The notes: generated from the sequence alone by a model not told the origin. A DNA stretch of 18,937 nucleotides from Promethearchaeota archaeon (GCA_027031765.1 JALVPN010000199.1:6428-25364), one strand, 5' to 3'; shown: positions 1,439 through 18,936, counted from the stretch's first letter. Made by a program: numbers and translations.

Positions 1439-1447
1439 CCGTCACGA

Positions 1448-2499: not shown

Positions 2500-2570
2500 T
2501 CCACAGTCCTCTTCACGAGTCGCTCCGCTCAAGCCTCGCTTGCGCCTGACCGCCGAGGCCAGCGGGCGAT

Positions 2571-2582
2571 ACTTATGTCTTT
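2571..2582 (-). promoter_or_regulatory. Putative BRE/TATA-like promoter of the dpp operon (AAAGACATAAGT)
   Basis: AT-rich 12-mer in GC-rich DNA, 71 nt upstream of the dppB ATG. It is 10/12 identical to the 12-mer upstream of the carbamoyltransferase at 4489. Confidence 0.45.
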
Positions 2583-3327: not shown

Positions 3328-3349
3328 GGACGCGTCATAGGCCGTCGAC

Positions 3350-3535
3350 ATGCGGGACGACCCGTGTGCACCGTACTGGCTGTACGGCTGCATGTGTCTG
3401 GGCAGCGCCTGTACCGGCCAGTGTCCGGACATAGAATACCTGTGCATGGGATACCTGCTACCGGACAGCCATCGTGAGGGCCATCACAGCCTTCTGCACG
3501 TGCAGACGGCTCTCAGCGATGTCGTACACGATTGA
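3350..3535 (+). CDS. Possible small Cys-rich peptide (6 Cys in the first 32 aa)
   Basis: MRDDPCAPYWLYGCMCLGSACTGQCPDIEYLCMG. In the non-overlapping part 27 of 35 codons end in G/C. Against it: weak SD and a 78-nt convergent overlap with the carbamoyltransferase 3' end. Confidence 0.3.
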   Translation: MRDDPCAPYWLYGCMCLGSACTGQCPDIEYLCMGYLLPDSHREGHHSLLHVQTALSDVVHD

Positions 3536-4489
3536 CCGCGGGCCGTCGCACACCTCATCTGTGACCTCAGCCCCCCGGTCCACTGGCCCACAGTGCATGA
3601 AGTACGCGTCGTTGGTGAGCGACATCCACTCGCTCGTGCACGTCCAGTCCTCGTGGCGGGCAGCAAGTCCTATCTCACGTTGCTTCGCAGCCTCGACCCC
3701 ACGTTCCCGGGCCGTGTCGTAGAAGCCACTGGTCATCCAGTTGCGGGAGTACACAAAGTCAGCCCTGCGATACCCCTCCTCAAGGTCGTGCACAACCTCA
3801 AACCTGCCGCCTGACTCCTCGGCGTTCTCCTCGCACCACCGCATGACCTCGGGGTCAAGGTCGTACCCCTCGGGATAGGCCAGTGTCACGTCCGTCCCCA
3901 GCCGCGTGTTTATCAGGATGCTCTCCTGCACCGAGCACCATGACCTCACGAGGGCGCCCTGCGCCCACACCTGGAGCAACTTCTTGCCCCTGGGGTCACG
4001 CCCGGCATGCATCCGCATCCCCATGATGTCTGCAAGGCCTTGGCAGGGATGGAACCTGTCGTGGGCCATTGATATCACGGGCACGCTTGCCCACCGGGCA
4101 TACTCCTCAAGCAGCTCGTGCCCCTGACCATAGTACTCCAGGGCGGTCTCAAGCACCCGGATGCCAATCCCACAGGCATATCGGCTCATCACGTTGGCAG
4201 CGTCCTGGACCGTCTCACCGGCCGTCTTCGCAGACTTCAGACGCATCGACCTCGGCTCAAGGAACTGTGCATGCCCACCGAGTTCGGTCGCAGCACACTC
4301 GAAGGACTGACGTGTCCGTACGGAGGGGTTGTAGAAGAACATGAAGAATGTCCGCCTGTCAAGGCAGTTGTTCAGTGGGTGGTCGAACCGCCGCGCCTTG
4401 AAGTCAAATGCGAGCTCCAGCGTCCTCTCGATCTCATCAACGGTCCAGTCCTGTGTGCATAGCAGGTCACGGTTGTACAGTGTGTTCAT
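3458..4489 (-). CDS. Aspartate/ornithine carbamoyltransferase-superfamily enzyme, divergent paralog 1 (substrate uncertain)
   Basis: Carbamoyl-phosphate motif FFYNPSVRTRQSFE, HPCQGLAD, C-terminal [38 protein letters not shown]. The start is moved from TTG 4501 to ATG 4489 (MNTLYNRDLL aligns with the RDF motif of paralog 2). Confidence 0.9.
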   Translation of the reverse strand: MNTLYNRDLLCTQDWTVDEIERTLELAFDFKARRFDHPLNNCLDRRTFFMFFYNPSVRTRQSFECAATELGGHAQFLEPRSMRLKSAKTAGETVQDAANVMSRYACGIGIRVLETALEYYGQGHELLEEYARWASVPVISMAHDRFHPCQGLADIMGMRMHAGRDPRGKKLLQVWAQGALVRSWCSVQESILINTRLGTDVTLAYPEGYDLDPEVMRWCEENAEESGGRFEVVHDLEEGYRRADFVYSRNWMTSGFYDTARERGVEAAKQREIGLAARHEDWTCTSEWMSLTNDAYFMHCGPVDRGAEVTDEVCDGPRSIVYDIAESRLHVQKAVMALTMAVR

Positions 4490-4525
4490 CGCAGTCCACA
4501 AGACGACCGCTGTGCACCACCAAGG

Positions 4526-4537
4526 ACTTAGGTGTTT
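4526..4537 (-). promoter_or_regulatory. Putative BRE/TATA-like promoter of carbamoyltransferase 1 (AAACACCTAAGT)
   Basis: 36 nt upstream of the ATG at 4489 and similar to the 12-mer upstream of dppB. It overlaps the inverted repeat GGTGT-N8-ACACC at 4531-4548. Confidence 0.4.
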
Positions 4538-4752
4538 CGAAGCACACCCCGTCGCATGCGGTCATGCAGGCCGGTTGCCGCCAGCCTGAGCCGTGACGCA
4601 ACCCACTCCCCAAGGCATGTCCACACATCTACATCTCAGGTACACATACCGCCCGACCCACCAACACCAACACGTGGCCGCACCCGGGCATGACCTGGAC
4701 CGTACTGTGTAGGGGGGCCGGCAACATGTGGCGGCCCATGCCACCACACCGG

Positions 4753-4992
4753 TCACCCGCGGAGGAGCGACTCCAGCCTCACCAGCTCGTCGTTGACCTC
4801 CTTCGCCTTGACGATCAACCGGACGAGGGAGCTGCGGTACTCCACTTCACCAATCCGTCCTGCCCTCAGCGACTCGTCAAGGTCGAACCGCTGACGACGC
4901 AGCTCCTCAGAGGCGCGCCGGAGGGCCGCCTGTCGGATCTTGACGAATGCCTTTGAGGTGCTCTGACCAATACCAGTCGAAAGACCACTCAT
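4753..4992 (-). CDS. Small helical protein (79 aa) with a SHOCT-like GRIGEVEY motif
   Basis: ATG at 4992 with a GTGAGG SD upstream and a TATATATA box about 43 nt upstream. Charged amphipathic helices flank LRAGRIGEVEYR. Confidence 0.7.
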   Translation of the reverse strand: MSGLSTGIGQSTSKAFVKIRQAALRRASEELRRQRFDLDESLRAGRIGEVEYRSSLVRLIVKAKEVNDELVRLESLLRG

Positions 4993-5034
4993 GTACGTCA
5001 GCCTCACATGTATCATTATTACATATTATCACCA

Positions 5035-5042
5035 TATATATA
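5035..5042 (-). promoter_or_regulatory. Archaeal TATA box (TATATATA) in an AT-rich island
   Basis: Strongest TATA-like element in the window, correctly spaced for the gene starting at 4992. Confidence 0.65.
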
Positions 5043-5407
5043 GTAATCGGCGATGTCGTGGGTGGCCGCTCACTGTGGAGGAAGGCACAGCGGTCGCGCA
5101 CTGTCCCTTGGTACGCAGACGGCCAGCGCTGCGACAGGGGCCACAGGACGGTCGTCACCATGCTCAATAAGCACCACTACGGTCTCATGGACCACATTGA
5201 CTGTGGCAGCCGGGAGAGGGCATACTGCCAAGCGGGGCGAGGGCTGTGGAGCTCACCGGGGTACCCGGTGTGGAGTGGCAAGCATGGCATGGTGTGGTGG
5301 GGTGGTAGTAGACAGGTGGTCCGCACACACTCAGGGGTCTCAATTGGAGCTGCCAAGGACTGGCGAGTCCGACACAGCTGGCCAGGCACCGCCAAGTGGA
5401 GCTGCAA

Positions 5408-6454
5408 CTAGCGCATTGTGAGGGCCATCACGGCCTTCTGTACGTGCAGACGGTTCTCGGCCTGGTCGAAGACCACGGACTGGGGGCCGTCAATGACGCT
5501 GTTCGTCACCTCGAAGCCCCTGTCACATGGGAGGCAGTGCATGTAGACGGCCTTTGGACCGGCAGTCCTCATCTTCTCGTCATCGCAGATCCAGTGCTTG
5601 TTCTTGTCGAAGAGCTCCTGGGACTTGTCGAGCTCGGGTGTTGGGTTCCACGGTGGGATGGAGCCGCGGCAGGTCCAGGCCTTTGGGTACACGACGTCGG
5701 CACCCTCGAACGCCTCGTCCATGTCGTAGACGATGTCGAAGCCCGAGCCGTTCTCCTCGGCGTACTGTCTGCACTTGGCAATGACCTCGTCATCGAGTTC
5801 CATGCCCTTCGGGTGGGCCAGGACCGTGTCCATGCCCATCTTTGTGGCTGCGATGACAGCGCTCTGGGGCACTGCGAGGGGCTTGTGGACGGAGGGCGAG
5901 TAGGCCCAGCTCATCACGAAACGGACACCCCGGAAGGTGCCGAACTTCTCCTTGACAGTGAGGAGGTCAGCAAGGGCCTGACACGGGTGGTACTTGTCGT
6001 CCTCCATGTTTATGACCGGTATGTCAGCCCAGTACGCAAAGTTGTTCACGATCTCATTGGCACGGCCATAGACCCAGCCCACGGGCTCACCATAGCACCG
6101 GATGGCAATGCCATGGCCCATGCGTGAGAGCACGCGCGCAACGTCTGAGACCCGCTCTGTAGAGTACGCCTTCTCGTCGCCCTCAAGGGCAGGGGCGTAT
6201 ATCTTGCTGGGGTCGAGGAAGTGGGCGTGACCACCCAGCTGCGTCATCCCGGCCTCGAAGGAGTTGCGGGTCCGCAGGGACTGGTTGTAGAAGATCATGA
6301 ACAGCGTCTTCGTGTCCAGCAGCTTGTGTGGCTCGCCGACAGCGAACTTGCGCTTCAGGTCCAGTGCCACTTCGAGGAGCGTCTCGACCTCCTCGCGGCT
6401 GTAGTCGAGGAGGGTTATGAAGTCCCTGCCTCTGAAAGACTCCGTCTTCACCAT
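5408..6454 (-). CDS. Carbamoyltransferase paralog 2, YgeW/N-acetylornithine-transcarbamylase-like branch
   Basis: [39 protein letters not shown] (resembles YgeW WAYSPS..KPL.VPQ as recalled), [13 protein letters not shown] and [15 protein letters not shown] at 6454 is preferred over GTG at 6463. Confidence 0.9.
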
Positions 6455-6716
6455 GGTGACCACAGACCACAGCCCTACGCGGGGCGTCAGAAAAACGTAT
6501 GGATGGCAACGACGACGTGGAGGATTGGCGGGGGGTCAGGACGGACGGAGTGGTGCGGACGCGTGCGGTGTACCGGGCAGGTACTGGAGCTGCAACAGCA
6601 CGACAAGTAGTGCCAACACGCAGACAACAGACCTACAACAGGTTGTGACACGACCCACACAAAATGAGTTATGTAGTGGAACACTGTATGTAGGCAGTGT
6701 ACGGAAGTGTTACTAT

Positions 6717-9700
6717 ATGCCTGCGGGACGGGGTGCTCTTGCAATTGCAATATTGTGTTCACTCACTCTCGTCACACCCGTTGTGATGGCAGTAGTGGAC
6801 ACCATGACGTGCAGGCCGCTCCAGACGGGGGATGCGGCTGTGACCGGGGACGCACCATCCGTACTGGTCAAGTGGGGGCGTCCTGTGAGTGACAAGGTGA
6901 CCGCCCCCGCAGCGCTCGTGGACCTGACCGGGGACGGCGTACTGGACGTCGTCATCGGAGACCTCTCTGGCCGCCTCTACGGCTTCCGTGGCAACAATGG
7001 GGACACCCTGTGGACGCTCGACCTTGGCAGTGCCGTGACGGGACAGCCCGCAGTCGGCTGGTACCCCCTGACAGGCGGCGGTGACTCGGGGGAAAGTACG
7101 GTACCATATGTCTTCGTGCAGGCCAACAACCGTGTGTATGCAGTCTTTGGCCTCAACGGCACCACCCTGTGGGAGCATGCCCTCGCCTCCGAACAGTTCA
7201 CAGCCCCTGCGGTCACAGATGTCGACGGGGACGCGTGGCCGGACATCGTGATCGGTGCACACAACGGAGGACTGCTGGCGCTCGCTGGTGCCAATGGCTC
7301 TGTGCTATGGACAAGGGACGACCTCGGCAACGTCATGTATGCACCGAGCGTAGCAGATGTGGACTGTGACGGGGACCTGGAGGTAGTGGTAGGTGCATTT
7401 GGTGGCAAGGTCTACGTGATCAGCGCCATAAACGGCACCACCGTGTGGAGCAGGGAGCCACCCGGTGACCCGGCCACGCCCATCTCGGTGGGGGACGTCA
7501 ACCGTGATGGGAGGCCGGAGCTCGTGTACGGCTCCTTTGACAACCGCGTGCACGTGCTGAGTGGAGAGGACGGTTCCACGCTGTGGTTCGGGAACGCAGT
7601 GAACGACATAACAACGACGCCGGCACTTGCGGACATAGACGGTGACGGTGATGTCGAGGTCGTTGTGGGGGCAGCCAACGGGGACGACTCGTTGTACGCC
7701 TTCAACGGTGTCACGGGCGAGCGCAAGTGGAGGTACACGGCACCAGACTACAGTGTGCGTGCGGCCGCGATATGCGGCGGGAGCACCGTGCATGGGCTTG
7801 ACATTGTGCTCTCGGTCGACAATACGCGGCTGACGTGCATCAATGGCACGTCTGGGGAGAGGACATGGTATCTCAACCTCAATGGGGCCCTGACGTGCGC
7901 CCCGGTCGCCGGCAACCTCGATGACGACCCGGATGTCGAGGTCGTGTTCGGCACGTACGGGAGCTATGTCTACGCGGTGGACATCGAGGGCGCCGGGTAC
8001 CGTGTCTACTGGCAGGGAGAGTGTGGAGACCCGTGGTGCTCTGGGACACGTGACCTCGGGGCCATAGACCCGGACATGGACGGCCTCTCATCGTACAGCG
8101 AACAGTTCACAGGGACAGACGCCAGAGACAATGACACTGACGGGGACGGCATGCCCGATGGGTGGGAGGTGTGGCATGGCCTTGACCCCGTAGACGACGA
8201 CGGGGACGCTGACCCCGACATGGACGGCCTACCGAACCGCTATGAGTACGGGAACCGGACGCTACCGGATGACCCGGACACCGATGATGACGGCATGTAT
8301 GATGGCTACGAGGCAGACTATGGCCTTGACCCGTTGACCGATGATGCCCTGGAAGACCCCGACAGCGATGGGCTCATCAACCTCGTAGAGTTCGCTGCCG
8401 GGACCCGTCCTGATACCGACGACACGGACGGCGACGGCATGGACGACCTCTACGAGTACGTCTCAGGGCTTGACCCGGTGGTCGATGACAGCCTGCTCGA
8501 CCTTGACGGCGACGGCCTGACGAACATCGACGAGTACTCACTCGGGACACTGGTGAACAGTAGCGACAGCGATGCGGACGGCATGCCGGACGGCTGGGAG
8601 GTCGACCATGGCCTCGACCCGTTGTCTGATGACAGGTATGACGACCCCGATGGTGACCGCCTGGCGAACCTGTGGGAGTACCTGGACGGTACGGACCCCC
8701 ACGACCCCGACTCCGATGGTGACGGGATGCCTGATGGCTGGGAGGCCCTGAACGACCTCGACCCACTCACACCAGACCGACTCGCCGACCCCGACTCCGA
8801 TAGTCTGACCAACATACAGGAGTACGCCCTCGGTACGCTCCCCACCGACAGCGACACGGACGGCGATGCCATGCCTGACGGCTGGGAGGTCGACCATGGC
8901 CTTGACCCGCTGTTTGGCGACGGGGCCAACGACCCTGACAGTGACGGCCTGTCCAACGTAGAGGAGTACGTTGCCGGTACGGACCCCCATGACAATGACA
9001 CTGATGGTGACGGCATGCCTGACGGCTGGGAAGTGCAGCACGGCTTCAATGCGACGTACGACGACGCAGCAGCAGACCCCGACGACGATGGCCTGACCGA
9101 CCTCGAGGAGTACCGGCTGGGCACCCTGCCGACTGAGGCCGACACCGACGGGGACGGCCTGCCCGATGGCTGGGAGGTACAGCACCACCTGGACCCCACG
9201 AGCCGCGACTCACACCTTGACCGGGACAACGATGGCCTCTGTGGACTCGACGAGTACGCTGCTGGTACAGACCCCGAGGACCCGGACACTGACATTGATG
9301 GCCTCCTCGATGGCACAGAGGTACGCCTGGGACAGGACCCGCTCTCACCGCGGGATGCAACTGTCGGGCTGGTGCTGCTCAACATACATGTGATAGTGAC
9401 AGCATGGCTGGTGGCGGCGGGGACCATTGTCTGGCGGAGGGAGGACATCCTCGTATGGCTATGGAGGTGGAGGCGCGGCCAGACCGCCGGGTGGGACACC
9501 GACCGCATCGTGGAGTGGCTCACGGCTGACGACGACGACAGGTCAGAGGCCACCCGCGTGGTGCGGGAGGCGTATGCCCTCTGCATGGAGGGGGGCCGCC
9601 TGCTCGAGCAGTCTGACTACGGGGGCGCGAGAGATATGTTCGGCAGGGCACTGGCGACAGTGCGTCACCACTCGGGCGTCCTCGGACCCGTCCAGCCGGA

Positions 9701-9767
9701 GATAGTACAGTTTGTGGTCGCGGAGGCAGAGGCTGGACTCTCACTGGCCATCAGCAGGGGGCGCTAG
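6717..9767 (+). CDS. Single-pass cell-surface protein: signal peptide, FG-GAP/PQQ-type beta-propeller, Ca-binding TSP3-like repeats, TM helix and TPR-like cytoplasmic tail
   Basis: ATG at 6717 starts a signal-like segment ([25 protein letters not shown]). Eight blades carry D(V/L/I)DGDG..(D/E)VV.G and G..LW motifs (about 6903-8060), followed by 18 DxDxDG-type repeats (8067-9350), a hydrophobic helix (9363-9434) and a helical tail. The ORF-track extension 6417-6716 looks non-coding. Confidence 0.9.
8067..9350 (+). repeat. Intragenic tandem repeat: nine 144-nt (48-aa) units of alternating 22-aa and 26-aa Ca-binding motifs (last unit shorter)
   Basis: Units start at 8067, 8211, 8355, 8499, 8643, 8787, 8931, 9075 and 9219, exactly 144 nt apart. 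Consensus [48 protein letters not shown]. Confidence 0.95.
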
Positions 9768-9788: not shown

Positions 9789-10763
9789 CTACGGCTCAAG
9801 ACGTACCTGGACCGGTGCTTTCCACGACTGGACCAGTGCAGTGAGGTGCTCCTCAGCCCGGTCAGTACCGTAGACTGCGTGCAGGAGCCTCCGTAGACGT
9901 GGGATGTGTGGTGCCCTCAGGCGGGTGTCAGCACCGGGGTAGTGGAGCTCGTCTGCACTTTCGAAGACGGCCCGGGCGTCAAGGAATGCAGGCCTGTCGG
10001 CAGAGTGGACGCCCAGTGCCCGCAGCACACCGGTCAGTCCACCATGACGGCGCAGGAGCCGGACGCCACGTCTGGGGCCGACACCACGGATTCCCGGGTG
10101 GAAGTCGCAGCCACAGAGCACTGCGAGGTCTCTGAGGCCCTCCAGGTCCAGGCCAGTGGTGCTCATCAGCCTGGCCAGACCCGTCGATTCGACGAGTCCC
10201 CGTGACGTGTGGACGTGACGGGACACATGTGGTGCCCCGAAGAGCAGCGTGTCGACGTCATTCGAGACCGCCGTGCCCACGAGGCCGTCACGACACAGTG
10301 CAGCTGCGGCCATCTCCGCCTCCGAGGGGGCCCTCACAGTGGGGACGCCCGCTGCAGAACAGAGGTCGAGGAGGTGCTGCGCGGCAAAGTAGGTCATGAC
10401 AGCAGGCGACTCGTGGAGCGTCCTCGCCAGCCCGGTGTCGTAGATGTCCGGCGAGGCGGCAAACCTGCGGTACAGTGCAGCACCGCGTGCCACGGTGGTA
10501 GCGTCCGGACGACGCTTGAGCGAGTCGGGGGGCCCGTCGAAGACGAACACGGGGGTCACGCCCAGTCGCAGGAGGCCAGTGACGAGCCTGAGGGCCACGT
10601 GGACGTGACCGGTAGGCACACGCTCGCAGTAGCGACTGGGGCGCATCATGACCGACATGCCACGGATCATGTAGTTGAACATGTCGACTGCCACCGCAGC
10701 CGGCCGGAGCGCACCAATGGGGCCCCAGTCCCACCGTACAAAGTCCCAGCCATGCACCCCCAA
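9789..10763 (-). CDS. FEN1/XPG-family structure-specific nuclease (divergent flap endonuclease paralog)
   Basis: AVDMFNY, PVFVFDGPP, APSEAEMAAA, SNDVDTLLFGAP and the H2TH motif LCGCDFHPGIRGVGPRRG; the catalytic acidic residues are retained. The start is set to TTG 10763 because it gives the canonical MGV N-terminus with SD GAGGTG (10772-10777) 8 nt upstream. Confidence 0.88.
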   Translation of the reverse strand: MGVHGWDFVRWDWGPIGALRPAAVAVDMFNYMIRGMSVMMRPSRYCERVPTGHVHVALRLVTGLLRLGVTPVFVFDGPPDSLKRRPDATTVARGAALYRRFAASPDIYDTGLARTLHESPAVMTYFAAQHLLDLCSAAGVPTVRAPSEAEMAAAALCRDGLVGTAVSNDVDTLLFGAPHVSRHVHTSRGLVESTGLARLMSTTGLDLEGLRDLAVLCGCDFHPGIRGVGPRRGVRLLRRHGGLTGVLRALGVHSADRPAFLDARAVFESADELHYPGADTRLRAPHIPRLRRLLHAVYGTDRAEEHLTALVQSWKAPVQVRLEP

Positions 10764-10768
10764 GTCGC

Positions 10769-11551
10769 TCACACCTCACGGATAGAGTGGAGACCGGTAC
10801 TGTCCACACGGACGACCACTGACGGGCACTGTAGTCGTACCGGGGCCCGTTCGACCGTCACACGCACGAAGCCGGAGGCCGGGTCGACCATGTCAATGCG
10901 GACCATTGAGTCGACGGCATGCGACAGGACGTTCCCACCGACCACTCTGGACTCACCGGTCAATGGGTGCTTTGAAGAGTGGTCAGTTGCCACCATGTGG
11001 AGGCCGCTGTCGAGCAGCACGTTGCGGACAGCCTCGAGTGCACGGAACAGCCTCCGCTGCCGCCCGCGGGTACCGGGTGGCACCGACAGGTTGAGGACTC
11101 CGGTCAGACTGTCCAGCACCACCAGCGAGGCACCAGGTACACCGGCCACCCTCTGGAGGCGGTCCTCAAGGTCTGAGAGTGACAGGACGCGGCCCACGAC
11201 CACCCTCTGCAACGCGCCCCGAGGACAGTCCCTGAGAAGGCTGCGCAGGAGGCGGGGCCTGCAGTTCGTCCCCGAGTCGAGGAAGATGCATGTGCCGCCA
11301 GCACGTACCGCACCACTGGCAAGCTCGTGGGCGAGTAGCGTGAGCAGCCCGCGCTCGTTGCCATGGACGAGGGTCAGCTGTCGTTCGACAATGATGGGTG
11401 CCAGCAGGGTGTTGAGCTGGTCGGGAGACAACCGGACGAGCGGCTGGCCGTGGTCACTGGCCTCGTCAAGCCGTACGCGTCCCACCGGTCTCACCCCCGC
11501 TGCTGACAGTGCCCCTCTCCACACTGACCGGGGCCTGCAGGAGACAGACAT
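10769..11551 (-). CDS. RadA/Rad51-family paralog with a degenerate Walker A (probably not an ATPase)
   Basis: LTLVHGNERGLLT at the P-loop position, CIFLDSGTNCRPRLL (compare YIDTENTFRPERL), Walker B LVVLDSLTG and GGNVLSHAVDSMVRI (compare Rad51 GGHILAH). The start is uncertain: ATG 11551, or GTG 11485 which reduces the overlap with the upstream gene to 20 nt. Confidence 0.8.
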   Translation of the reverse strand: MSVSCRPRSVWRGALSAAGVRPVGRVRLDEASDHGQPLVRLSPDQLNTLLAPIIVERQLTLVHGNERGLLTLLAHELASGAVRAGGTCIFLDSGTNCRPRLLRSLLRDCPRGALQRVVVGRVLSLSDLEDRLQRVAGVPGASLVVLDSLTGVLNLSVPPGTRGRQRRLFRALEAVRNVLLDSGLHMVATDHSSKHPLTGESRVVGGNVLSHAVDSMVRIDMVDPASGFVRVTVERAPVRLQCPSVVVRVDSTGLHSIREV

Positions 11552-12422
11552 CAAGTACCCCCTCTCTTTGAAGGGGCGCGCCCGACAGCACTGCACAGTC
11601 CGCAAGGTGGACAACACAGGCCAGACCGTCACCGTGGGGACACACAACCATGCCCCGGGGCTGCTCCAGCAGCAGCCGGTCGACGGACTCGGGGTCGGTC
11701 ACCAGCACGTACTCATCGATGGGCAGGCCGACACGTTCTTGGAGCAGCGGGAGGGCCACCGCGGCCAGCGCGAGGAGTGGCGGTGCCCTCGCTACCGGGG
11801 ACACGCCTGCCGAGGCCAGGAGCCGCGGCACCTGACGTGCCCGGGGGTCAGCCTGACGTACCACCACGAGGTCGGCCCCCTCAGTGTGTACCAGACATAC
11901 CGGGAGGCCTTCCCGGCCCCGGAGGAGCGGGACGACACCTTCGAGCATGCCCTCCGGGAGTACGAGCACCAAGACATCACGTAGTAGTGGGCCTGCGTGC
12001 TGCCATGGTGCACCCAGTACCCCGACCCCTGCAGTACCTGACGACACAGGCGCACTGGCCGACATGTCGAGCAAGGACTGGAAGAGGTCGCGGAACCGTT
12101 GCGGGTCGCGGGTAGCAGCACCCAGGAGCAGGACGACCGTAGACGCAGCGACCGCCACTGCGAGGCCACCGGCAAGCGACGCGATGAACACAGAGACGTA
12201 GGTAAGGCCCAGACACAGGTACCCCGCATACTCGACAGTACGGGCTGTCCTCCCCTTGAGCCGTGTCGTCCCAGTGCGGAGCAGGGACAGTGCGAGCACT
12301 GCCAGGACAGAGAGTGGGAGCGGGTTGCCCAGTCGCAGGCTGGCCACGACGGCCGTGACAAGCGCCAACAGGTACGACCCGGCCAACAGGAGTACCAGCG
12401 CGGCCAGGCTCAGCTTGATCAT
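11466..12422 (-). CDS. Hypothetical membrane protein (about 4 N-terminal TM helices plus a soluble C-terminal domain)
   Basis: ATG at 12422 forms an ATGA overlap with the stop of the upstream RadB-like gene. Four hydrophobic segments lie in the first ~105 aa. Confidence 0.75.
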   Translation of the reverse strand: MIKLSLAALVLLLAGSYLLALVTAVVASLRLGNPLPLSVLAVLALSLLRTGTTRLKGRTARTVEYAGYLCLGLTYVSVFIASLAGGLAVAVAASTVVLLLGAATRDPQRFRDLFQSLLDMSASAPVSSGTAGVGVLGAPWQHAGPLLRDVLVLVLPEGMLEGVVPLLRGREGLPVCLVHTEGADLVVVRQADPRARQVPRLLASAGVSPVARAPPLLALAAVALPLLQERVGLPIDEYVLVTDPESVDRLLLEQPRGMVVCPHGDGLACVVHLADCAVLSGAPLQREGVLDVCLLQAPVSVERGTVSSGGETGGTRTA

Positions 12423-13195
12423 ACGGAACACGAGTCCTCCGAACACCTCGACACCCCCATTGCAGACGTGCCAGGCCTCCCCGTCGCCGCTGCTGACACT
12501 ACTGCCCCGGCCGTGGGGCCCCGGTCAGGGGACGGACGACCGCCTGCCTCAGGACCTCTGCCACCAGACTCGAACTCTACGGCGCCATCTGCACGCACCC
12601 ACATCCTGCCCAGGAGGCCCCGGCCACCCACCTCGACGACCTCTGAGGCCGGGTCACCGGCAGGCCCGCGTCTGAGCAGGAGGTCATGGTCTGCCCAGCG
12701 CCGGATGGCCGCGTAGCACACTGGCACTGTGCCCTCGGCTCCCAGGTACCTGCACTCGCTGGTCAGGATGACCGGCACCCGTCGTGTCCTGCTCATTGCT
12801 GCAAGCGTTGGCAGCACCTCTTCGAAGAGTTCCCGGCCCCACATGATGTCGTCCTGGAACGACATGTCGAGCACGCGGGTCACCGGGTCGACGACCACAA
12901 GGCCCAGGTCGGCGGGTGGAGCACTACACAGTGTCAGGACAGCCCTCCGCGCCTCATCGGGGCTGCGCGTGACCTCCACCGTGATGTTCGACGCGACACC
13001 TCCAAGGACACACACGTTCCTCCTGAGGTGCGTCACCACGCTTGTCTTCAGGTCAGTACAGAACCAGTGCACGCAGGAGTGGCTGCTGGCCTCTGCCGCG
13101 AGGCGGGACGCGAACACCGTCTTGCCGGCCCCAGACAGGCCCCAGACATGGACAATGCCACGTAGGCCGAGCCGGTGCATCAGGCCACTCCGCAC
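12419..13195 (-). CDS. RadB-like RecA-superfamily ATPase
   Basis: Walker A GLSGAGKT (13118-13141), Walker B LVVVDPVT and VPVILTSE. The start is set to GTG 13195, one base after the upstream stop (ATG 13180 is the alternative). The ORF-track extension to 13444 overlaps the neighbouring gene. Confidence 0.82.
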   Translation of the reverse strand: MRSGLMHRLGLRGIVHVWGLSGAGKTVFASRLAAEASSHSCVHWFCTDLKTSVVTHLRRNVCVLGGVASNITVEVTRSPDEARRAVLTLCSAPPADLGLVVVDPVTRVLDMSFQDDIMWGRELFEEVLPTLAAMSRTRRVPVILTSECRYLGAEGTVPVCYAAIRRWADHDLLLRRGPAGDPASEVVEVGGRGLLGRMWVRADGAVEFESGGRGPEAGGRPSPDRGPTAGAVVSAAATGRPGTSAMGVSRCSEDSCSV

Positions 13196-13196
13196 C

Positions 13197-14927
13197 TCAT
13201 GCGCCCTCACTACCGGGCACCTCCTCGCGTCCCACGTCCGCAGGCGCGTGCACACCCATGCTGTCACCAATACCAGCACCAGCAACTGACGCGGTACTGA
13301 CCCCAGTAGCTCCACCACCAGCGTCATCTCCCGTGCTGAAGTCCTGGTCTGCAGGGCCACCACCTGGAGCGCCCGTCCCAACAGCACTCGTAGCACCCGG
13401 ACTATCAGTGGCCCCTGCACCAGCGGTGCTGTCAGCCCCTCCACCTGATGTGCCCCCGGCCAGTGAGTCCAGTGCTGAGTCGATCATGCGGTCGAGCAGG
13501 TCGCGCACCTCATCATCATCGTCATCGTCCGCCTTCCCATCACCGTGCGCAGGGGCGTCATGGCCGCTGTTGGCCGTAGGGCTGTCGTCTCCACTCTCAC
13601 TGCCATCGCTCTCCTCAAGTGCCCTGTCGAGCTCGCGCACGACGAGCCTCATGCTCCAGTCATTGAGGGTGTCGTCCAGGGTGCGTTTCAGGTCGGCAGA
13701 CAGGATGCCACCCATGAAGAGGGCGTTGTTCAGGGTGCCGAGGTGCTCGACGAGCTCGCCCTCCGAGAGGGGTGACGCACCGCTCCCTGAGAGGGACGCA
13801 TATGCCAAGGCCAGTGCAGAGTCCATCTCGGGGTCGACGACGCCGACAGCGTGGAACACCGACAGGAACATGTCGAGTGCACGGTCACCCAGGCCCACAG
13901 TGCCACTGGGGAGCGCCATCTCACCAGCAGCACGCACCAGCTCGTCAATCACCGCGTCCGCATAGCGCATCGCAAGGGGTGCGTCCCGGTCGCACAGTGC
14001 GTCACAGACCGACGCCATCAGCGCCGAGACCGTCACGGTGAGTTCCCTGACGAGGGAGCCCACGAGAGAGTGCTCACTGAGCGAGTCCCGGATACGCCCC
14101 CCGTCAGCCACCGCATAGAGGGCCTCCAGCTCGTCTGAGCGGGCGCCCTCGAACTTGAGCATGGCGCTCCTCGAAGAGGACAGCAGGACGAGCGCTGCCA
14201 CAGAGGCGGCCACCACAATCACAGACGCGAGCGTGTCAGGGGCCCTGCCGGAAAGGAGGCCCTGCAGGACAGGGACCAGACCCGTCGCAGCCAGGACGAG
14301 GGCCAGCAGTCCAGACCAGCCGTGTGAGACGGAACGTGTGCGCGCAGCCCACTTGCCGGGACAGACAACACCACGTACATCCGCGTGGACGGCACGGGCG
14401 TCGCTGCTGAGCGCGAGTGCGAACTCACTGGAGCTGAGCACACGCGAGCTTGTGGTCAGCCACGACAGGTCGACCGAGGGCGGGACGTCCTGTGCCACCA
14501 CATACACGGTACGCGTCACCAGTGGGACGGACCCCGCCTGCGAGCCCGTGGGAGAGACCGTTTCGAGGGAGACGCGTCCCCAGGGGGTCAGGGTGGTCCA
14601 CTGGCCTGTCTCCTGGGCCAGCCCTGTGTCACGCAGCAGCTCGTCCAGCGGCATGTTCACCCTGTCGAGGATGACGGCCCTCCTGCCGGGTGTTACGTGT
14701 CGCTGGAGGCCTGCGCCCTCCGCATCGAGCACAGACACAATGTCGACATGGACGCTGCGCGAGCCCGGAACCCCGGACAGGCGCACGCCCATGACAATGC
14801 CACCGGGATAGGCGGTGGCCGAGTAGCCGGAAGAACGGAGGGCCCGCATGACCTCGGCGCCAGTGCGGCCGACCGAGGCCGGGTCGTCCTCTCCCAGTGC
14901 TGTACTGGTACCATGTCCTATCATCAT
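13197..14927 (-). CDS. Hypothetical membrane-anchored protein (2 central TM helices, helical domain, ~140-aa acidic low-complexity tail)
   Basis: ATGA overlap with the helicase stop and a GGTGA SD. Hydrophobic pair WSGLLALVLAATGLVPVL and LASVIVVAASVAALVLL. The tail (13197-13616) is rich in D/E/G/S/A. Confidence 0.78.
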   Translation of the reverse strand: MMIGHGTSTALGEDDPASVGRTGAEVMRALRSSGYSATAYPGGIVMGVRLSGVPGSRSVHVDIVSVLDAEGAGLQRHVTPGRRAVILDRVNMPLDELLRDTGLAQETGQWTTLTPWGRVSLETVSPTGSQAGSVPLVTRTVYVVAQDVPPSVDLSWLTTSSRVLSSSEFALALSSDARAVHADVRGVVCPGKWAARTRSVSHGWSGLLALVLAATGLVPVLQGLLSGRAPDTLASVIVVAASVAALVLLSSSRSAMLKFEGARSDELEALYAVADGGRIRDSLSEHSLVGSLVRELTVTVSALMASVCDALCDRDAPLAMRYADAVIDELVRAAGEMALPSGTVGLGDRALDMFLSVFHAVGVVDPEMDSALALAYASLSGSGASPLSEGELVEHLGTLNNALFMGGILSADLKRTLDDTLNDWSMRLVVRELDRALEESDGSESGDDSPTANSGHDAPAHGDGKADDDDDDEVRDLLDRMIDSALDSLAGGTSGGGADSTAGAGATDSPGATSAVGTGAPGGGPADQDFSTGDDAGGGATGVSTASVAGAGIGDSMGVHAPADVGREEVPGSEGA

Positions 14928-17119
14928 ACTACATCACCACTACTATCATCTCTGAGCCTGACCTCGAGGTCTTCGAACAGCCGGCGTGCCATCTCTGCGA
15001 CCCGGGCCATGCCAGTGACGTCAGCGACCCCCGCGATGGAGTAGGTGAGCCAGCGCGAGGTGTCCATCAGCGACACCAGGTCCCTGTATGAGACGCCACT
15101 GTACTCAGCGACCTCGTCCAGCGGCGTCCGCGTGGTCACCGCCATCAGGAGTGCCTGCTGGAGCTGGTCGTCCACACGCTGGCCGGTCTCAAGGGCGACC
15201 ATGTGCCTGAGCAGTGCAACGAGCCCGTCGGCCGAGTCAACCACCGACATGAGTGGCAGCACCTCACGCAGGGTGGTCGGACGCAGGTACAGCCGGCACA
15301 CTGTCCTGCCAAGTGCGGTCGGCCGCAGGGCCCCAGACTCGCCGCCCTCCACAAGCCCCAGCCGGACGAGCATGGACAGGGGGCTCGCCTCACTGAGTGC
15401 CAGCGGGACTACAAAGTCGGCCAGGGCCTGGTGCTCCGTGGCAGCGGCCACCCCGAGGGCCACGAGGTGAGTGCAGAGGATGCCGTCATCAGAGATGGGA
15501 GAGCCGCAGGAACACATGGGCCCGTCGATGACGCCGGCCGGGTCAGTGCGCAGTGAGAAACGACACACATGGCTGCTGCCAGCTGTCGAGTGCACAATCC
15601 CACCGATGACCCGGTCACTCACCTCGCGCACCTCTACGTGCCCGAGCACGCCCTCGCGGGCAGCGGCGAGCGTGGTGGACAGGGCGTGCCTCCCAATGGC
15701 TGCCAGGGCGGTCATGTCGGCAATGCTGAACAGGCGCCCCCGGGCACCGCCGTCCCACCTGCTACAGTGTGCATAGAACGACTCGAGCAGCACACCGTCC
15801 TCCAGGTCCTCCACCGCCGCGCTGCCCAGCCAGTCCAGGAGGACGAGGACCTGCTCTGCGAGGGCGTCGGGGTCGCCGAGGGCGCTCCTCACAGGTGCGA
15901 AGCGTGCGACGAGCACCTCCTCGCCCGTCCGCGGGTCCTGCCGCCGCCCGCCACCCGCACTGATCACACGTGCCGACTCACCACGACTCGATGTGAGGAC
16001 GATGCCAAAGCCCATGCGGTCACGCCCCGGACGTCCGGCCCTGCCAAGCATCTGGTGGACGAGGTTGGGGTCCAGGAGGTCGTCTGGACTGCCCGGCGAG
16101 CGTGCAGAGGTAAGGATGACCGTCCTTGCCGGGAGGTCCATGCCGACAGCGAGTGTGGTCGTCGAGCAGACCACCCGCACGAGGCCACGGGTGAAGAGCT
16201 GTTCCACGAGCGCCCTGGCAGAGGGCGCCAGACCGGCATGGTGGTAGGCCACACCAGATGGGAGGAGGCCGCTCAGGTCAGGGGGTAGCTGCACGCCCCA
16301 GTTCTCAATCGAGGACAGCTGCCCCTGCGACTCGCGCTGCTCCTCCGAGGTCAGGTGGCGCTGTACCTCCGGTGCGAGGGCGGCGGCAGTAGACTCCGCC
16401 TCCCTGCGGCTCTGGGTGAACACAAGCACCTGGCCATCTGCCTGCACAGTGGTCATCACGAGCTCTTGGAGCAGTGCTGCACGCTGACGGGTGGCGAGCA
16501 CGTGACACGAGAGCGGTACGGGGCGTTCGCTGGACTCCACGAGCTCGGCGCCCAGCCAGTCTGCGAGCACTTCTGGTGAGCCCACGGTGGCGGACAGGCC
16601 GATGAGCTGCAGCCCGGGCACGAGTTGGCGGAGGCGCATTATCAGTCCTTCGAGGCGGGCACCACGCACAGGGTCTGACAGCATGTGCACCTCGTCGATG
16701 ACCACCGTGCCGACCGACTCCAGCCATGATGCCCTGTGTCTGAGCAGCGAGTCCGCGCGTTCGTAGGTCGTCACCAGCAGGTCGTACTCGCCGAGCTCCT
16801 CGGGCGTGCGGTAGTAGTCGCCACTGCTCACACCAACACTGATGCCAAGGGGTGCGTACCGTTCGCTGAGGACCGTGGCCACCTGCCGTGCCAGGGCCCG
16901 CAGTGGTGTCAGGTAGAGGCCACGCCGGCCCGACGAGACCGCCCGCAGGAGGGCCATCTCACCGACCATGGTCTTGCCAGAACCAGTGGGGCTGACCACA
17001 AGGACGTTGCGGCCCTCCAGCAGCCCACGTCCGACAGCCTCCTTCTGTATGCCACGGGGACGGAGGCCCGCTCTTGCCAGCAGGTCCTTGACACCAGTTG
17101 TCCGGCACACCTCTGTCAT
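14924..17119 (-). CDS. Ski2/Hel308-like SF2 DExH helicase with an inserted SWIM zinc finger
   Basis: Q motif GIQKEAV, SPTGSGKT, PLRALA, TTYERADSL, DEVH, SAT, YHHAG, STTTLAVGMDLPA and QMLGRAGRPG. Winged-helix and ratchet-like segments (RPTALGRTVCRLYLRP; MDTSRWLTYSI). CSC-x10-CTHLVA at 15467-15514. ATGA overlap with the upstream gene. Confidence 0.93.
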   Translation of the reverse strand: MTEVCRTTGVKDLLARAGLRPRGIQKEAVGRGLLEGRNVLVVSPTGSGKTMVGEMALLRAVSSGRRGLYLTPLRALARQVATVLSERYAPLGISVGVSSGDYYRTPEELGEYDLLVTTYERADSLLRHRASWLESVGTVVIDEVHMLSDPVRGARLEGLIMRLRQLVPGLQLIGLSATVGSPEVLADWLGAELVESSERPVPLSCHVLATRQRAALLQELVMTTVQADGQVLVFTQSRREAESTAAALAPEVQRHLTSEEQRESQGQLSSIENWGVQLPPDLSGLLPSGVAYHHAGLAPSARALVEQLFTRGLVRVVCSTTTLAVGMDLPARTVILTSARSPGSPDDLLDPNLVHQMLGRAGRPGRDRMGFGIVLTSSRGESARVISAGGGRRQDPRTGEEVLVARFAPVRSALGDPDALAEQVLVLLDWLGSAAVEDLEDGVLLESFYAHCSRWDGGARGRLFSIADMTALAAIGRHALSTTLAAAREGVLGHVEVREVSDRVIGGIVHSTAGSSHVCRFSLRTDPAGVIDGPMCSCGSPISDDGILCTHLVALGVAAATEHQALADFVVPLALSEASPLSMLVRLGLVEGGESGALRPTALGRTVCRLYLRPTTLREVLPLMSVVDSADGLVALLRHMVALETGQRVDDQLQQALLMAVTTRTPLDEVAEYSGVSYRDLVSLMDTSRWLTYSIAGVADVTGMARVAEMARRLFEDLEVRLRDDSSGDVV

Positions 17120-18936
17120 GTCCCGACCCCCTGTGAGTCCTCGTACTGCCTCAACGCCATCTCGCCCTTCATTGTGATCCGGTAGTTCTGGTACGACACG
17201 CCACTGTGCACCTCGTGACCACGCAACACCATGCTCGCATGTTCCAGACGCATGAGGACGGCCTGCACGTCAGCACCGGGGTGTCCACTTGCCTGGACGA
17301 ACCGCCTGACAGACTCCTCGGTCAGTGGCGAGTACCTCCGGAGGAGGCGCAGCACCTCGACCGCAACACCCACATCACGGCCAACAGCGGTCTCGAGGAG
17401 CGACTGCGCACCGGGAGCAGGCAGTCCCTCCGGTGGCCGTGCAGGCGCGACCCCTGACAGCCGGCGCCGGAGCTCCTCGTCTGATGGTGCCACCATCTGT
17501 GGACAGTCGTCGAGCCGGACAGGCACAGCGAGCTCCTCACCGCTCCGGGCCAGCAACACCATCCCGTCAGGGAGGACACGCAGGAACGAGGTCTCACGTG
17601 GTGACCAGCGGGCCTTTGTGTGGAGGCCAGTCGTGAGCACTGACAGGCCCAGGGCGCCCGAGACCACACCGAGGTCGTACTTGTTCTTCAGACGCAGGGA
17701 TATGCATGCCGAGAGCTGTTCGATGACGCCGGTCGGCAACGACGATGGCTGTGACACACTGACCACCAAAGGCCCACGACCCATCAGCTGCCTGACACGC
17801 CGCTCGGCCCACGGGGCCCTGTCGCTGAGGCGTGTCCCCTGTACGGTGAGGTCCGAGGGGCCGTCGAGGACAACCACCAGAGCGGGGTCAGCCTCAAGGC
17901 CGAGGAGTTTGAGAGAGAAGAGCTCCCACGCGAACATGTCCAGCATGTCGGAACCCGTCTTCAGGACGACCACAGAGAGCGGGGCGGACACGATGTCTGC
18001 GATGTCCACCGTCTGGTGCCCGTAGAAACACGCGGCGCCCGGGCCCTGGTACAGCGTCCTGATGGCCTCCATGCCACTCGCGGTCGCCCTCGACAGCTGC
18101 TGTGCCTGACCGGGGACGTCACTGTTGGCGTCCGTAGCATCAAGTGTGACGTCAGCGACAGTAGCCGACCCCAGGGCCACAGCCCGGCTCAGGGCGACCT
18201 CAAGGTCGACAGCGGTGGTGAGCGGCATGCCGGCCAACACCTCCAGCGCCCGCTTGAGGCCCGCCACGTACTCCCTGTGTCCCACCCCCTCAGGGTCCAC
18301 CGGGTTCAGGACGAGGTCGCGGCCGAGGACAAGACCGAGGGCAGAGGGGTCGAGGGCTGCAAGTGCAAGCCTGGACTCATCAGATGTGACTACGAGGACG
18401 CGGTTTCCAGCCGACAACAGGCCACTGGTCAGCAGGCCAAGCACATGGAGCCGCTCGTCGGCCGTGCCACCACAGAGCAACACACCGCGCGCCAGTTCTC
18501 CGTGCACGAGTCCTACGGGTGGCCCCTCAGTCAGCGTGTCCGGGCTCACCGAGTAGCCGATGCGGTACTCGTACGGACGGCCCCGGATTGGTGCGACGAA
18601 CTGGCCTGGGACACTGCTCCCGACCTCCGAGGCCAGCTCACTGGCAAGGCGTACGAGCCAGTCCTTGAGCTCCCGGCCGGCAGCAAAGAAGCCCGGCCAC
18701 GAGAGGGGGACATCACAGTCGAGGACGGAGCGCTCGAGGTCGTCTGGGGACACGGCTGTCAGCGTACTGAGGGGCACAGTGGCACGGACAGCGGTCTCGA
18801 AGGCCTGCGCCTCACGGGTGTCCAGGGTGTGGCCCATGACCGCAGCAGTGACCTCCCAGAGACCGCCACGTGCCAGCGAGAAGGCGTCAGCGGCACCGCC
18901 TGTGAGCCGGTAGAGGAACTCCTCCACATCCGGGGC
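17116..18936 (-). CDS. HerA/VirB4/FtsK-superfamily ATPase-like protein with degenerate Walker motifs and a C-terminal winged helix (5' end outside the window)
   Basis: The frame is open to the right edge. GVLLCGGTADERL at the Walker A position, LVLNPVDP, an all-helical insertion, LVVVLDGP at Walker B, VSVSQPSSLP..VIEQLSACISLRL (HerA Q.P motif) and C-terminal VLMRLEHASMV...NYRITMKG. Confidence 0.75.
   Translation of the reverse strand, partial: APDVEEFLYRLTGGAADAFSLARGGLWEVTAAVMGHTLDTREAQAFETAVRATVPLSTLTAVSPDDLERSVLDCDVPLSWPGFFAAGRELKDWLVRLASELASEVGSSVPGQFVAPIRGRPYEYRIGYSVSPDTLTEGPPVGLVHGELARGVLLCGGTADERLHVLGLLTSGLLSAGNRVLVVTSDESRLALAALDPSALGLVLGRDLVLNPVDPEGVGHREYVAGLKRALEVLAGMPLTTAVDLEVALSRAVALGSATVADVTLDATDANSDVPGQAQQLSRATASGMEAIRTLYQGPGAACFYGHQTVDIADIVSAPLSVVVLKTGSDMLDMFAWELFSLKLLGLEADPALVVVLDGPSDLTVQGTRLSDRAPWAERRVRQLMGRGPLVVSVSQPSSLPTGVIEQLSACISLRLKNKYDLGVVSGALGLSVLTTGLHTKARWSPRETSFLRVLPDGMVLLARSGEELAVPVRLDDCPQMVAPSDEELRRRLSGVAPARPPEGLPAPGAQSLLETAVGRDVGVAVEVLRLLRRYSPLTEESVRRFVQASGHPGADVQAVLMRLEHASMVLRGHEVHSGVSYQNYRITMKGEMALRQYEDSQGVGT

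Follow-up and report, generated by a model that had tools for sequence, protein, structure and literature searches.

A conserved Thorarchaeaceae operon that links a SWIM-bearing Hel308-like helicase with RadB-like and RadA-derived paralogs

Archaeal Hel308/Hjm, metazoan HELQ and the helicase domain of POLQ (PDB: 2p6r, 2va8, 2zj5, 5a9j) are Ski2-like SF2 DNA helicases that share a RecA1/RecA2 core, a winged helix with a ratchet domain and a motif IVa of the form YHHAGL, which is defined more generally as F/YHHAGL (PMC10484726). HELQ binds the RAD51-paralog complex BCDX2 (PMC13623763), and in published trees the eukaryotic HELQ and POLQ proteins branch with the Hel308 proteins of Asgard archaea (PMC10946056). 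RadB, a euryarchaeal paralog of RadA, is a recombination mediator in Haloferax (PMC5480776), and two RadA clades have been described in Asgard archaea (bioRxiv 10.1101/2025.05.23.655837). CXC...CXHXXA is the defining motif of the Shu2/SWS1 family, whose members always partner RAD51 paralogs (PMC6316741, PMC5727457). In the Shu complex, for which a structure is available (PDB: 5XYN; PMC5727457), the SWIM protein Shu2 or SWS1 is found together with the RecA-fold paralogs Shu1, Psy3, Csm2 or SWSAP1, one of which has no functional P-loop. Furthermore, the Ced system of Sulfolobales (CedA, CedA1, CedA2 and CedB) imports DNA for recombinational repair (PMC11823120, PMC9905601).

The window, by which we mean the whole stretch of 18,937 nucleotides that was analysed, carries a minus-strand operon with a Hel308-family helicase, a RadB-like ATPase with Walker A (paralog D) and a RadA-derived protein without the P-loop lysine (paralog F). 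The sequence-only reading had described one operon with a SWIM finger, a Hel308-family helicase and two RadA-family paralogs, and all four parts are indeed present on the minus strand. They lie in the span from 10769 to 17119 that it had given for them, but this span belongs to the 3' half of an array of 15 genes that extends past both ends, and two membrane-protein genes intervene between the helicase and the paralogs. The array further contains a second RadA (RadA2), an XPD-like and a FEN1-like paralog, four membrane proteins and a pseudo-ATPase that resembles CedB/HerA. In this genome, the other half of the operon is found on contig C221. Adjacent genes share 4 nt (ATGA or GTGA) or are only a few bases apart. 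The 15 genes occur in the same order in more than 20 Thorarchaeaceae genomes from at least 12 genera, and the flanking genes are kept too. Canonical RadA, RadB, Hel308, XPD and FEN1 are encoded elsewhere in the same genome, so the copies in the operon are paralogs. We consider it reasonably probable that the operon is vertically inherited and translationally coupled, and that it supplies a second set of divergent recombination enzymes beside membrane-anchored proteins.

The conservation of the array also bears on whether it could be an anti-phage defence island or an integrated mobile element built around a Hachiman-like Ski2 helicase, which we regard as extremely unlikely. The helicase core reaches 133 bits against the PADLOC HamB models and the XPD-like protein matches the PADLOC DinG model of type IV CRISPR, but both matches span generic helicase cores only. 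HamA or another defence partner is not present in the operon, and none of the other eight operon proteins tested had a PADLOC match. Moreover, throughout the family the array is found in a single copy, in synteny and between conserved flanks, a pattern opposite to that of defence islands. The defence reading is therefore disfavoured.

The helicase (14924..17119, minus strand) is a Hel308-family SF2 paralog of 731 aa, identified with Pfam, NCBIfam and a fold match of its AF2 model. It matches the Pfam families DEAD (8e-32) and Helicase_C (7e-11), and the Hel308-type NCBIfam models with E-values from 2e-83 to 2e-102, aligned over residues 10-386 only. The scores are far below the NCBIfam equivalog cut-offs, with 280.6 bits compared to 1200 for NF040935 and 344 compared to 887 for PRK02362. 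Motifs I, II, IVa and VI read GSGKT, DEVH, AYHHAGL and QMLGRAGR and are invariant or nearly so. According to the AF2 model (pLDDT 87), the protein consists of a RecA1/RecA2 core, a winged helix that is split by the SWIM insert, and a ratchet domain. The best PDB matches of this model in Foldseek are the Hel308/Hjm structures 2p6r, 2zj5 and 2va8 (E 1e-35 to 1e-34, TM 0.65-0.76), followed by the POLQ helicase domain (E 1e-30). Unlike Hel308/Hjm, the operon helicase has a SWIM module of ~120 aa inside the winged helix and lacks the HhH domain 5. In the AF2 model the chain stops after the ratchet helices, and the GxGRVRAR-type HhH motif, which is found in the helicases L048-L050 and in the canonical Hel308 of the same genome, is missing. 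This canonical Hel308 has domain 5 but no SWIM module. The backbone of the helicase tree was without resolution.

The insert in the winged-helix domain covers residues ~456-575 (15395..15754, minus strand) and was delimited by predicted structure, fold match and the Pfam matches of its orthologs; the segment that follows it aligns to the winged-helix residues 446-488 of Hel308. Within the insert, the putative zinc-ligand motif CSC-x10-CTHLVA (residues 536-554; 15458..15514, minus strand) has C536, C538, C549 and H551 as ligands, all of which are invariant in 14 Thorarchaeota orthologs. The motif is positioned at the same site in each of the 12 distant helicases retrieved from Asgard archaea, and in a total of 32 sequences, which include these 12, the four CxC/CxH ligands are invariant, well beyond chance. 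In the AF2 model the insert comprises a pair of helices and a sheet of four strands, followed by a further helix that begins at CxH. The window's own insert does not match the SWIM family (Pfam: PF04434) even at E 10; orthologous inserts score 30.8 (L050), 19.1 (L039), 17.2 (L045) and 15.8 bits (L046), with a gathering cut-off of 19.6. A profile of the insert recovers stand-alone, Pfam-positive SWIM proteins. Its best fold match is the SWIM region of ZSWIM8 (9rwz_M; Z 6.4, rmsd 3.7 over 89 aa), followed by a match at Z 3.8, and its neighbours in the ESM Atlas are PF04434 proteins (TM 0.43-0.51), bacterial SNF2-associated SWIM modules among them. Based on the Pfam matches of orthologous inserts and on the profile, fold and Atlas matches, the sequence and predicted structure identify the helicase insert as a genuine SWIM module, for which zinc binding is predicted.

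Bacterial SNF2-associated and stand-alone SWIM proteins (Pfam: PF04434, PF08455) have the same fold extent, with a beta-sheet and then the CxC...CxH helix, and the SNF2-associated ones are likewise attached to an SF2 helicase. The host of the Asgard module is a Ski2/Hel308 helicase and not SNF2, however, and the module lies within the winged helix instead of at a terminus. The earlier caution that SWIM domains occur widely with prokaryotic helicases holds. The module is probably a generic prokaryotic helicase-associated SWIM that was grafted into the winged helix of a group of helicases from which the autoinhibitory HhH domain 5 had disappeared, where it would probably add a DNA- or partner-binding surface.

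Paralog D (12419..13195, minus strand, with an alternative start ATG at 13180) is a core-only RecA-fold ATPase of the RadB type with an invariant Walker A (GxxGSGKT) and Walker B Asp. The single sequence scores 25.9 bits (8e-6) against the RadB model TIGR02237, which has a cut-off of 172. The profile of the D clade (A6) has RadB as its top single-domain match in the PDB (2cvf, 1.5e-27). The same profile gives 99 bits for RadB, 65 for RadA and ~43 for RAD51B, XRCC3 and RAD51D, which is a ranking of scores and not a tree with eukaryotic sequences. Both RadB (TIGR02237, 2cvf) and D consist of a RecA-fold core alone (~220-250 aa) and carry Walker A and Walker B. D differs from RadB in that it forms an Asgard clade of its own beside canonical RadB in the same genomes and is genomically tied to the helicase; it groups with the proteins encoded next to SWIM helicases in other Asgard archaea (SH-aLRT 97), apart from canonical RadB. 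We classify D, on its sequence, as RadB-like and not as a RadB ortholog.

Paralog F (10769..11431, minus strand, with an alternative ATG at 11551) has a RadA/Rad51-derived core and is a predicted pseudo-ATPase. It has GNERGLLT at the P-loop position and the Lys is absent in 19 out of 20 orthologs, so that one paralog with and one without Walker A are found, as had been noticed before. F retains LDSLTG, the Walker B Asp and the Rad51-like motif GGNVLxH. Its profile matches RadA, Rad51 and DMC1 with E-values from 1e-16 to 1e-11, RAD51D with 4e-8 and RadB with 1e-6; the bit scores of 64 for RadA, 60 for DMC1 and 36 for RAD51D again rank profiles and do not represent a tree with eukaryotic sequences. 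In the tree, F is a long branch with Thorarchaeaceae only, and an F-clade HMM search found no ortholog in the other Asgard loci. Since F is confined to Thorarchaeaceae, the pairing of D and F is not ancestral. This profile comparison places D nearest to RadB and F nearest to RadA/Rad51 and reveals no special affinity of either one to the eukaryotic RAD51 paralogs (RAD51B/C/D, XRCC2/3, SWSAP1 and Shu1/Psy3/Csm2).

These results also weigh on a possible prokaryotic ancestor of the Shu complex, in which the SWIM insert would dock on the D/F pair like Shu2 on Shu1/Psy3 or SWS1 on SWSAP1. Such an ancestor would account for a SWIM module and RecA-fold paralogs in one operon, with one paralog lacking the P-loop, and the window's own motif fits CxHxxA. 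The Ala of this motif varies, however: close orthologs have A, T or I at this position, and helicases from other Asgard families have K, G, H or T. Moreover, the SWIM protein of the Shu complex is a separate subunit, whereas the SWIM of the operon is an insert of the 731-aa helicase and not a stand-alone alpha/beta protein, and the folds closest to it belong to ZSWIM8 and to bacterial SWIM proteins that are either SNF2-associated or stand-alone. The D profile scores far higher for RadB than for RAD51B, XRCC3 and RAD51D, RadA, Rad51 and DMC1 rank over RAD51D for F, and F is limited to Thorarchaeaceae while the SWIM insert is Asgard-wide. The profile search of the PDB, run to E 10, and the fold searches found no Shu2/SWS1 chain, an absence that is compatible with kinship, and 0 of 20 sampled matches of the insert profile carried a Shu2/SWS1-type name. 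Because the Ala varies, D is nearest to RadB, F is nearest to RadA/Rad51 and the searches revealed no relative of Shu2/SWS1, homology of the insert and the paralogs to the Shu complex is not supported. We judge the Shu-like arrangement to be very unlikely, and the SWIM insert is probably not an ortholog of Shu2/SWS1. The sequence-only reading had drawn a parallel to both Shu and HELQ; its Shu half does not hold beyond the broad SWIM superfamily, while its half on HELQ and the RAD51 paralogs gains support from gene linkage in Asgard archaea.

Hel308-like helicases with a SWIM module are present in many Asgard families, and in at least seven of the Asgard families genes of the D-type clade and of a second RadA clade recurrently adjoin them. 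The RadA2 clade is separate from canonical RadA in the tree. In all 11 assessable genomes outside of Thorarchaeaceae, a D-type gene lay no more than 10 kb away from the SWIM helicase; as the D-clade model was trained partly on neighbours that were later recovered, these cases are independent only at the level of families. There are also SWIM helicases in other surroundings. A second SWIM-bearing helicase-like gene of the same genome, on contig C110, has no RecA-family neighbour and three SWIM helicases that retain domain 5 have no D-type neighbour, which indicates that SWIM and the paralog linkage are separable. The helicase and D are probably an ancient Asgard gene pair, with RadA2 usually nearby. 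The recurrent linkage of helicase and D across Asgard archaea supports an analogy to HELQ and its RAD51 paralogs. HELQ binds BCDX2, and here the genes of the putative partners lie in one operon with the helicase.

Three genes next to the helicase and the paralogs encode proteins linked to the membrane. The CedB/HerA/VirB4-like protein g787 (17116..18936, minus strand) is cut by the contig end, so that the window holds the C-terminal ~606 of ~780 aa, and its N-terminus is found on contig C221. Its orthologs have 758-787 aa with N-terminal TM segments. The Walker A is degenerate (GGTADERL), and the invariant columns do not include a P-loop Lys. No match to g787 was found in Pfam, NCBIfam or PADLOC, and HerA structures in the PDB match it weakly (E 0.05). 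In a comparison of ESM Atlas features, the best match is annotated as 'DNA import protein CedB' (0.92) and 10 out of 10 matches are of the DUF87/HerA type. The two genes that separate helicase and paralogs encode a 576-aa protein (13197..14927, minus strand) with a conserved pair of TM helices (~aa 200-256) and a tail that is acidic and of low complexity, which keeps its position in all Thorarchaeaceae loci and has no match in Pfam, NCBIfam, PADLOC or the Atlas, and a ~320-aa membrane protein (11466..12422, minus strand) that has four TM helices in its N-terminal part and a C-terminal domain in the cytoplasm; the start codon of its gene overlaps the stop of D (ATGA). As these genes stand between the helicase and D and F, the direct partners of D and F could be membrane proteins.

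This arrangement invites comparison with Ced, which likewise has a CedB/HerA-like membrane protein, small membrane proteins and a link to recombinational repair. The operon might encode a Ced/Ted-like envelope machine for DNA import or cell-to-cell transfer, in which D and F are not mediators of RadA filaments but subunits of a complex with the 2-TM, 4-TM and CedB-like proteins, while the helicases and the nuclease process the crossing DNA. The interleaving of D and F with membrane-protein genes, the conserved TM helices in four operon proteins and the Atlas cluster nearest to g787, CedB, with its HerA/VirB4-type matches, are consistent with this. The CedB-like protein differs from that of Ced in being a pseudo-ATPase, however, and cannot alone be the motor because it has no P-loop lysine, and, unlike in Ced, helicases, a nuclease and recombinase paralogs share the operon. 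No CedA-like or pilin-like component was identified (CedA was not sought by profile), and no relatives were detected for either the 2-TM or the 4-TM protein. In the fetched loci of other Asgard families, moreover, the helicase, D and RadA2 occur without membrane genes, so the core trio does not depend on them. We therefore consider DNA translocation a rather unlikely function of the operon.

The explanation that we favour, with some reservation, is a second recombination set of RadA2, D, F, the XPD-like helicase, the Hel308-like helicase and the nuclease at the membrane, analogous to HELQ with the RAD51 paralogs. D would act as a RadB-like mediator on RadA2 filaments, and in Thorarchaeaceae it would probably be joined by the RadA-derived pseudo-ATPase F to form a catalytically asymmetric pair. 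The Hel308-like helicase, as a 3'-5' translocase or annealase, could handle the same branched or single-stranded intermediates, and the FEN1-like nuclease may trim flaps, the entire process presumably being kept at the membrane. This nuclease (9789..10772, minus strand) is a FEN1/XPG-family paralog encoded by the last gene of the array. It matches XPG_I (2.6e-18) and scores 103 bits against fen_arch, which has a cut-off of 352; the canonical FEN1 of the same genome is found on contig C144.

In eukaryotes, recombination relies on HELQ and on complexes of RAD51 paralogs, both of which are of obscure evolutionary origin. In Asgard archaea we find a conserved gene pair of a Hel308-type helicase and a dedicated RadB-like paralog, usually with a second RadA alongside. 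Because the proteins are all small and soluble, and some of them occur in cultured Asgard species, the gene pair is a concrete, testable prokaryotic model of a helicase-paralog partnership. A Hel308 subfamily which carries a SWIM insert, lacks the autoinhibitory domain 5 and is paired with a dedicated RadB-like clade has not been described before. No paper retrieved in the literature search brings up SWIM and Hel308 together, and SWIM is not mentioned in a dedicated survey of archaeal Ski2-like helicases which included 75 Asgard genomes. Two RadA clades in some Asgard lineages are reported in a 2025 preprint, which gives no operon context (bioRxiv 10.1101/2025.05.23.655837).

The window has a high G+C content (59-68%) and comes from a genome of 2.95 Mb that is 95% complete; the orthologs of its helicase are all labelled Thorarchaeota or Promethearchaeota. 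Seven genes lie on the minus strand, with 4-nt overlaps or a spacing of a few bases between neighbours: an open-ended 606-aa ORF (17116-18936), a 731-aa helicase (14924-17119), g558, a 576-aa protein with two TM helices (13197-14927), the RecA-fold paralog D (12419-13195), a membrane protein of ~320 aa with four TM helices (11466-12422), the second paralog F (10769-11431) and a FEN1/XPG-like nuclease (9789-10772). By Pfam and NCBIfam the helicase is Hel308-like, and D and F each have a weak RadB-like match only. The sequence-only reading had described a SWIM-bearing Hel308-type helicase together with two RadA-like paralogs, one of them without Walker A, and this observation is correct as written, with the CSC-x10-CTHLVA motif located at aa 536-554 of the helicase.

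The Hel308-type NCBIfam/Pfam match of the helicase covers aa 10-386 only and is far under the equivalog cut-offs. Its AlphaFold2 model (pLDDT 87) has Hel308/Hjm as the best match (E 1e-35) and the helicase domain of POLQ as the next. The modelled segment aa ~456-575 consists of two helices, a sheet of four strands and a helix starting at the CxH, all set into the winged-helix (WH) domain, and the segment after the insert aligns with the WH residues 446-488 of Hel308. The protein ends after the ratchet domain and therefore the helix-hairpin-helix (HhH) domain 5 is absent.

We conclude that the insert is a genuine SWIM module, of a generic prokaryotic kind. None of its four predicted zinc ligands varies among 14 close orthologs or among 32 sequences across several Asgard families. 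Pfam gave no SWIM match on the window's own insert even at E 10; orthologous inserts reach the Pfam SWIM model, one of them (L050) with 30.8 bits at a gathering cut-off of 19.6. Searching the insert profile against 1.84 billion representatives returned about 65 helicase-sized proteins first and then small stand-alone proteins passing Pfam SWIM. The helicase-sized matches that were looked up carry Heimdall-, Loki-, Hel- and Baldr-archaeal names, and none of 20 sampled matches bears an SWS1/ZSWIM7 name, all being Asgard helicases or anonymous small SWIM proteins. For the domain model of the insert (pLDDT 86) the best fold match was ZSWIM8, whose SWIM region reached Z 6.4 with an rmsd of 3.7 over 89 residues (runner-up Z 3.8). 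Outside its own family, the ESM Atlas places the insert next to PF04434 proteins and to SWIM helicases of the bacterial SNF2-associated type. A Foldseek comparison of the insert model with PDB structures yielded nothing under E 0.05, and the PDB sequence search with the insert profile found the Hel308 WH tail only, with no Shu2, SWS1 or ZSWIM chains listed.

There is a second SWIM-bearing helicase-like gene in the same genome, of ~742-759 aa (CSCESWKYQGLRKHRLCKH; 6158-8386, minus strand, in locus L099, G000:C110:82000-97000). It is very degenerate, with a DEAD match under the Pfam cut-off, adjoins genes for succinyl-CoA ligase and lacks a RecA-family neighbour. It is possibly an inactive helicase derivative.

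Paralog D has an invariant GxxGSGKT and the Walker B Asp, and F has no P-loop lysine but keeps LDSLTG and the Rad51-like GGNVLxH. Against the PDB, the profile of the D clade (A6) matched RadB best (1.5e-27, 99 bits), followed by RadA (6e-17), RecA (1e-13), Rad51 (1e-11) and the eukaryotic paralogs RAD51B, XRCC3 and RAD51D (~2e-10). The F profile matched RadA, Rad51 and DMC1 (1e-16 to 1e-11), RadB (1e-6) and, as eukaryotic paralog, RAD51D (4e-8). A quick maximum-likelihood tree combined the RecA-family genes that PF08423 scans detected in five Asgard genomes with RadB of the window's genome, the proteins of the operon and the genes near distant SWIM helicases. In this tree D joins the genes near SWIM helicases of other Asgard families (SH-aLRT 97), separate from canonical RadB (99), and the operon RadA joins RadA-like genes near these distant helicases (93), separate from canonical RadA (95). 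Within the RadA-like assemblage, F sits on a long branch that is confined to Thorarchaeaceae. Another clade of RecA-fold proteins, which lack GK[ST] (L085, L088, L089, L093 from G320, G313 and G362, L095 and L097), is encoded at unrelated loci in genomes of Thorarchaeaceae and other Asgard archaea, with SH-aLRT 99 for the Thorarchaeaceae members.

A phylum-level scan with the C-terminal half of the helicase found an ortholog in 58 of the 85 genomes of the family and weaker matches in other families. All 12 distant helicases fetched have CxC...CxH at the same site, and a RecA-family gene is found within about 8 kb in 9 of these 12 loci. The scores of the D-clade profile are bimodal, with at least 158 bits for the D type and about 110-140 bits for canonical RadB. 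In the reverse test with this profile, a D-type gene lies less than 10 kb from the SWIM helicase, and usually adjacent to it, in 11 of 11 genomes outside Thorarchaeaceae that have both genes on one contig; these span six families, and several of their sequences were used in training the D model, so that they are independent at family level only. The helicases linked to D lack domain 5. Three SWIM helicases which keep domain 5 (L048-L050) have no D-type neighbour. The helicase family tree has long branches and a backbone without resolution, and makes no call on the orthology of the Thorarchaeaceae operon helicase and the D-linked helicases of other families.

The sequence-only reading had further proposed a parallel to both the HELQ-RAD51-paralog axis and the eukaryotic Shu complex, and it held in part. 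For the HELQ analogy there is support in the form of conserved gene linkage, in agreement with published trees which place HELQ/POLQ with Asgard Hel308 sequences (PMC10946056) and with the interaction of HELQ with BCDX2 (PMC13623763). The Shu analogy comes down to the co-occurrence of SWIM and RecA-fold proteins. Shu2/SWS1 proteins have a signature defined by an Ala (PMC6316741), which is not conserved in the insert described here, and their SWIM is a subunit, whereas here it is an insert in a helicase. Moreover, the relatives of the insert are generic SWIM proteins and the paralogs are RadB-like and RadA-like. A 2015 study by Godin and colleagues (in Genetics 199:1023) reportedly defined the Shu2/SWS1 family and claimed archaeal orthologs; the family definition used here follows PMC5727457 and PMC6316741. 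The complex prediction of D and F with the SWIM/WH segment as partner scored 0.00 against a mark of 0.32 and counts neither for nor against. The idea of a Shu ancestor is attractive and of low probability. It would make the Asgard trio of SWIM Hel308 without domain 5, D-type RadB-like paralog and second RadA a prokaryotic antecedent of the HELQ-BCDX2 axis, with a SWIM that docks the paralog and was later freed as a separate SWS1/Shu2 subunit, which we consider quite improbable.

In Thorarchaeaceae the unit is larger than the stretch described initially and is an array of 15 genes. On contigs with orthologous helicases the order is g250, g154, RadA-like (HhH + Rad51), g152, g196, XPD-like, g201, g98, g787, Hel308-SWIM, g558, D, the 4-TM protein, F and FEN-like. 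Essentially all of 20 further Thorarchaeaceae loci have the same order, with the flanking genes kept. The window's contig stops inside g787, a CedB/HerA-like gene (window 18937), where the assembly splits the operon, and the eight upstream genes are located at the beginning of another contig of this genome, C221 (G000:C221:1-9000, minus strand, ~470-6590). This segment contains g250, the second RadA, g152, g196, XPD-like, g201, g98 and the N-terminal part of g787; no g154 was found in it. Outside the operon the genome encodes a canonical Hel308 that has HhH domain 5 but lacks SWIM, an XPD with an adjoining RadB, FEN1 and a RadA that is incomplete and lies at the end of a contig. The canonical RadA of complete relatives reaches 304-320 bits with PF08423, compared to ~180 bits for the operon copy. 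With these further enzyme copies and the lower scores of the operon RadA, the operon thus encodes a divergent second set of enzymes for recombination.

Conserved TM helices are present in four proteins of the operon, namely g201, g787, g558 and the 4-TM protein. By language-model features g787 is nearest to CedB/HerA/VirB4 ATPases (0.92; 10 of 10 matches DUF87-type); by sequence its HerA match is weak (E 0.05), and it has no P-loop lysine. The ESM Atlas gave no usable match for the 2-TM or the 4-TM protein. Since the D and F genes alternate with membrane-protein genes, a membrane-bound assembly in which D and F have the membrane proteins as direct partners is a serious alternative to their partnership with the helicase. 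The growth into a 15-gene membrane-linked operon is a hint that recombination is coupled to the cell envelope in Thorarchaeaceae. That the operon is a defence system is not supported, as the PADLOC matches are to generic helicase cores only and the array keeps its synteny, in a single copy, throughout the family.

Variants of the array were also observed. The FEN-like gene of GCA_964610875 is present as two ORFs of 125 and 178 aa (L002/L065, 16155-17125), which suggests a frameshift or a pseudogene. In G368 (locus L056, G368:C1) the upstream half of the array is away from the helicase, whose open frame reaches 985 aa, and the operon is therefore rearranged there. In another Asgard family, f16, the gene of a small g152-like protein separates the SWIM helicase from the D-type paralog (L040 9411-9854, L041 6418-6825), and in Thorarchaeaceae g152 comes after the second RadA; the g152-like protein may belong to the core module as a conserved fourth component. 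A second, non-operon pairing of helicase and paralog in the window's own genome is the canonical XPD adjoining the canonical RadB (G000:C40:30099-33510). On the opposite strand, a 1116-aa ORF adjoins the operon (6417-9767, plus strand); it contains multiple DxDGD / thrombospondin-type Ca-binding-like repeats and has a TM segment at its C-terminus. Other Thorarchaeaceae loci have, in its place downstream of the operon, a MG2/Big_1 surface protein of ~2,590 aa.
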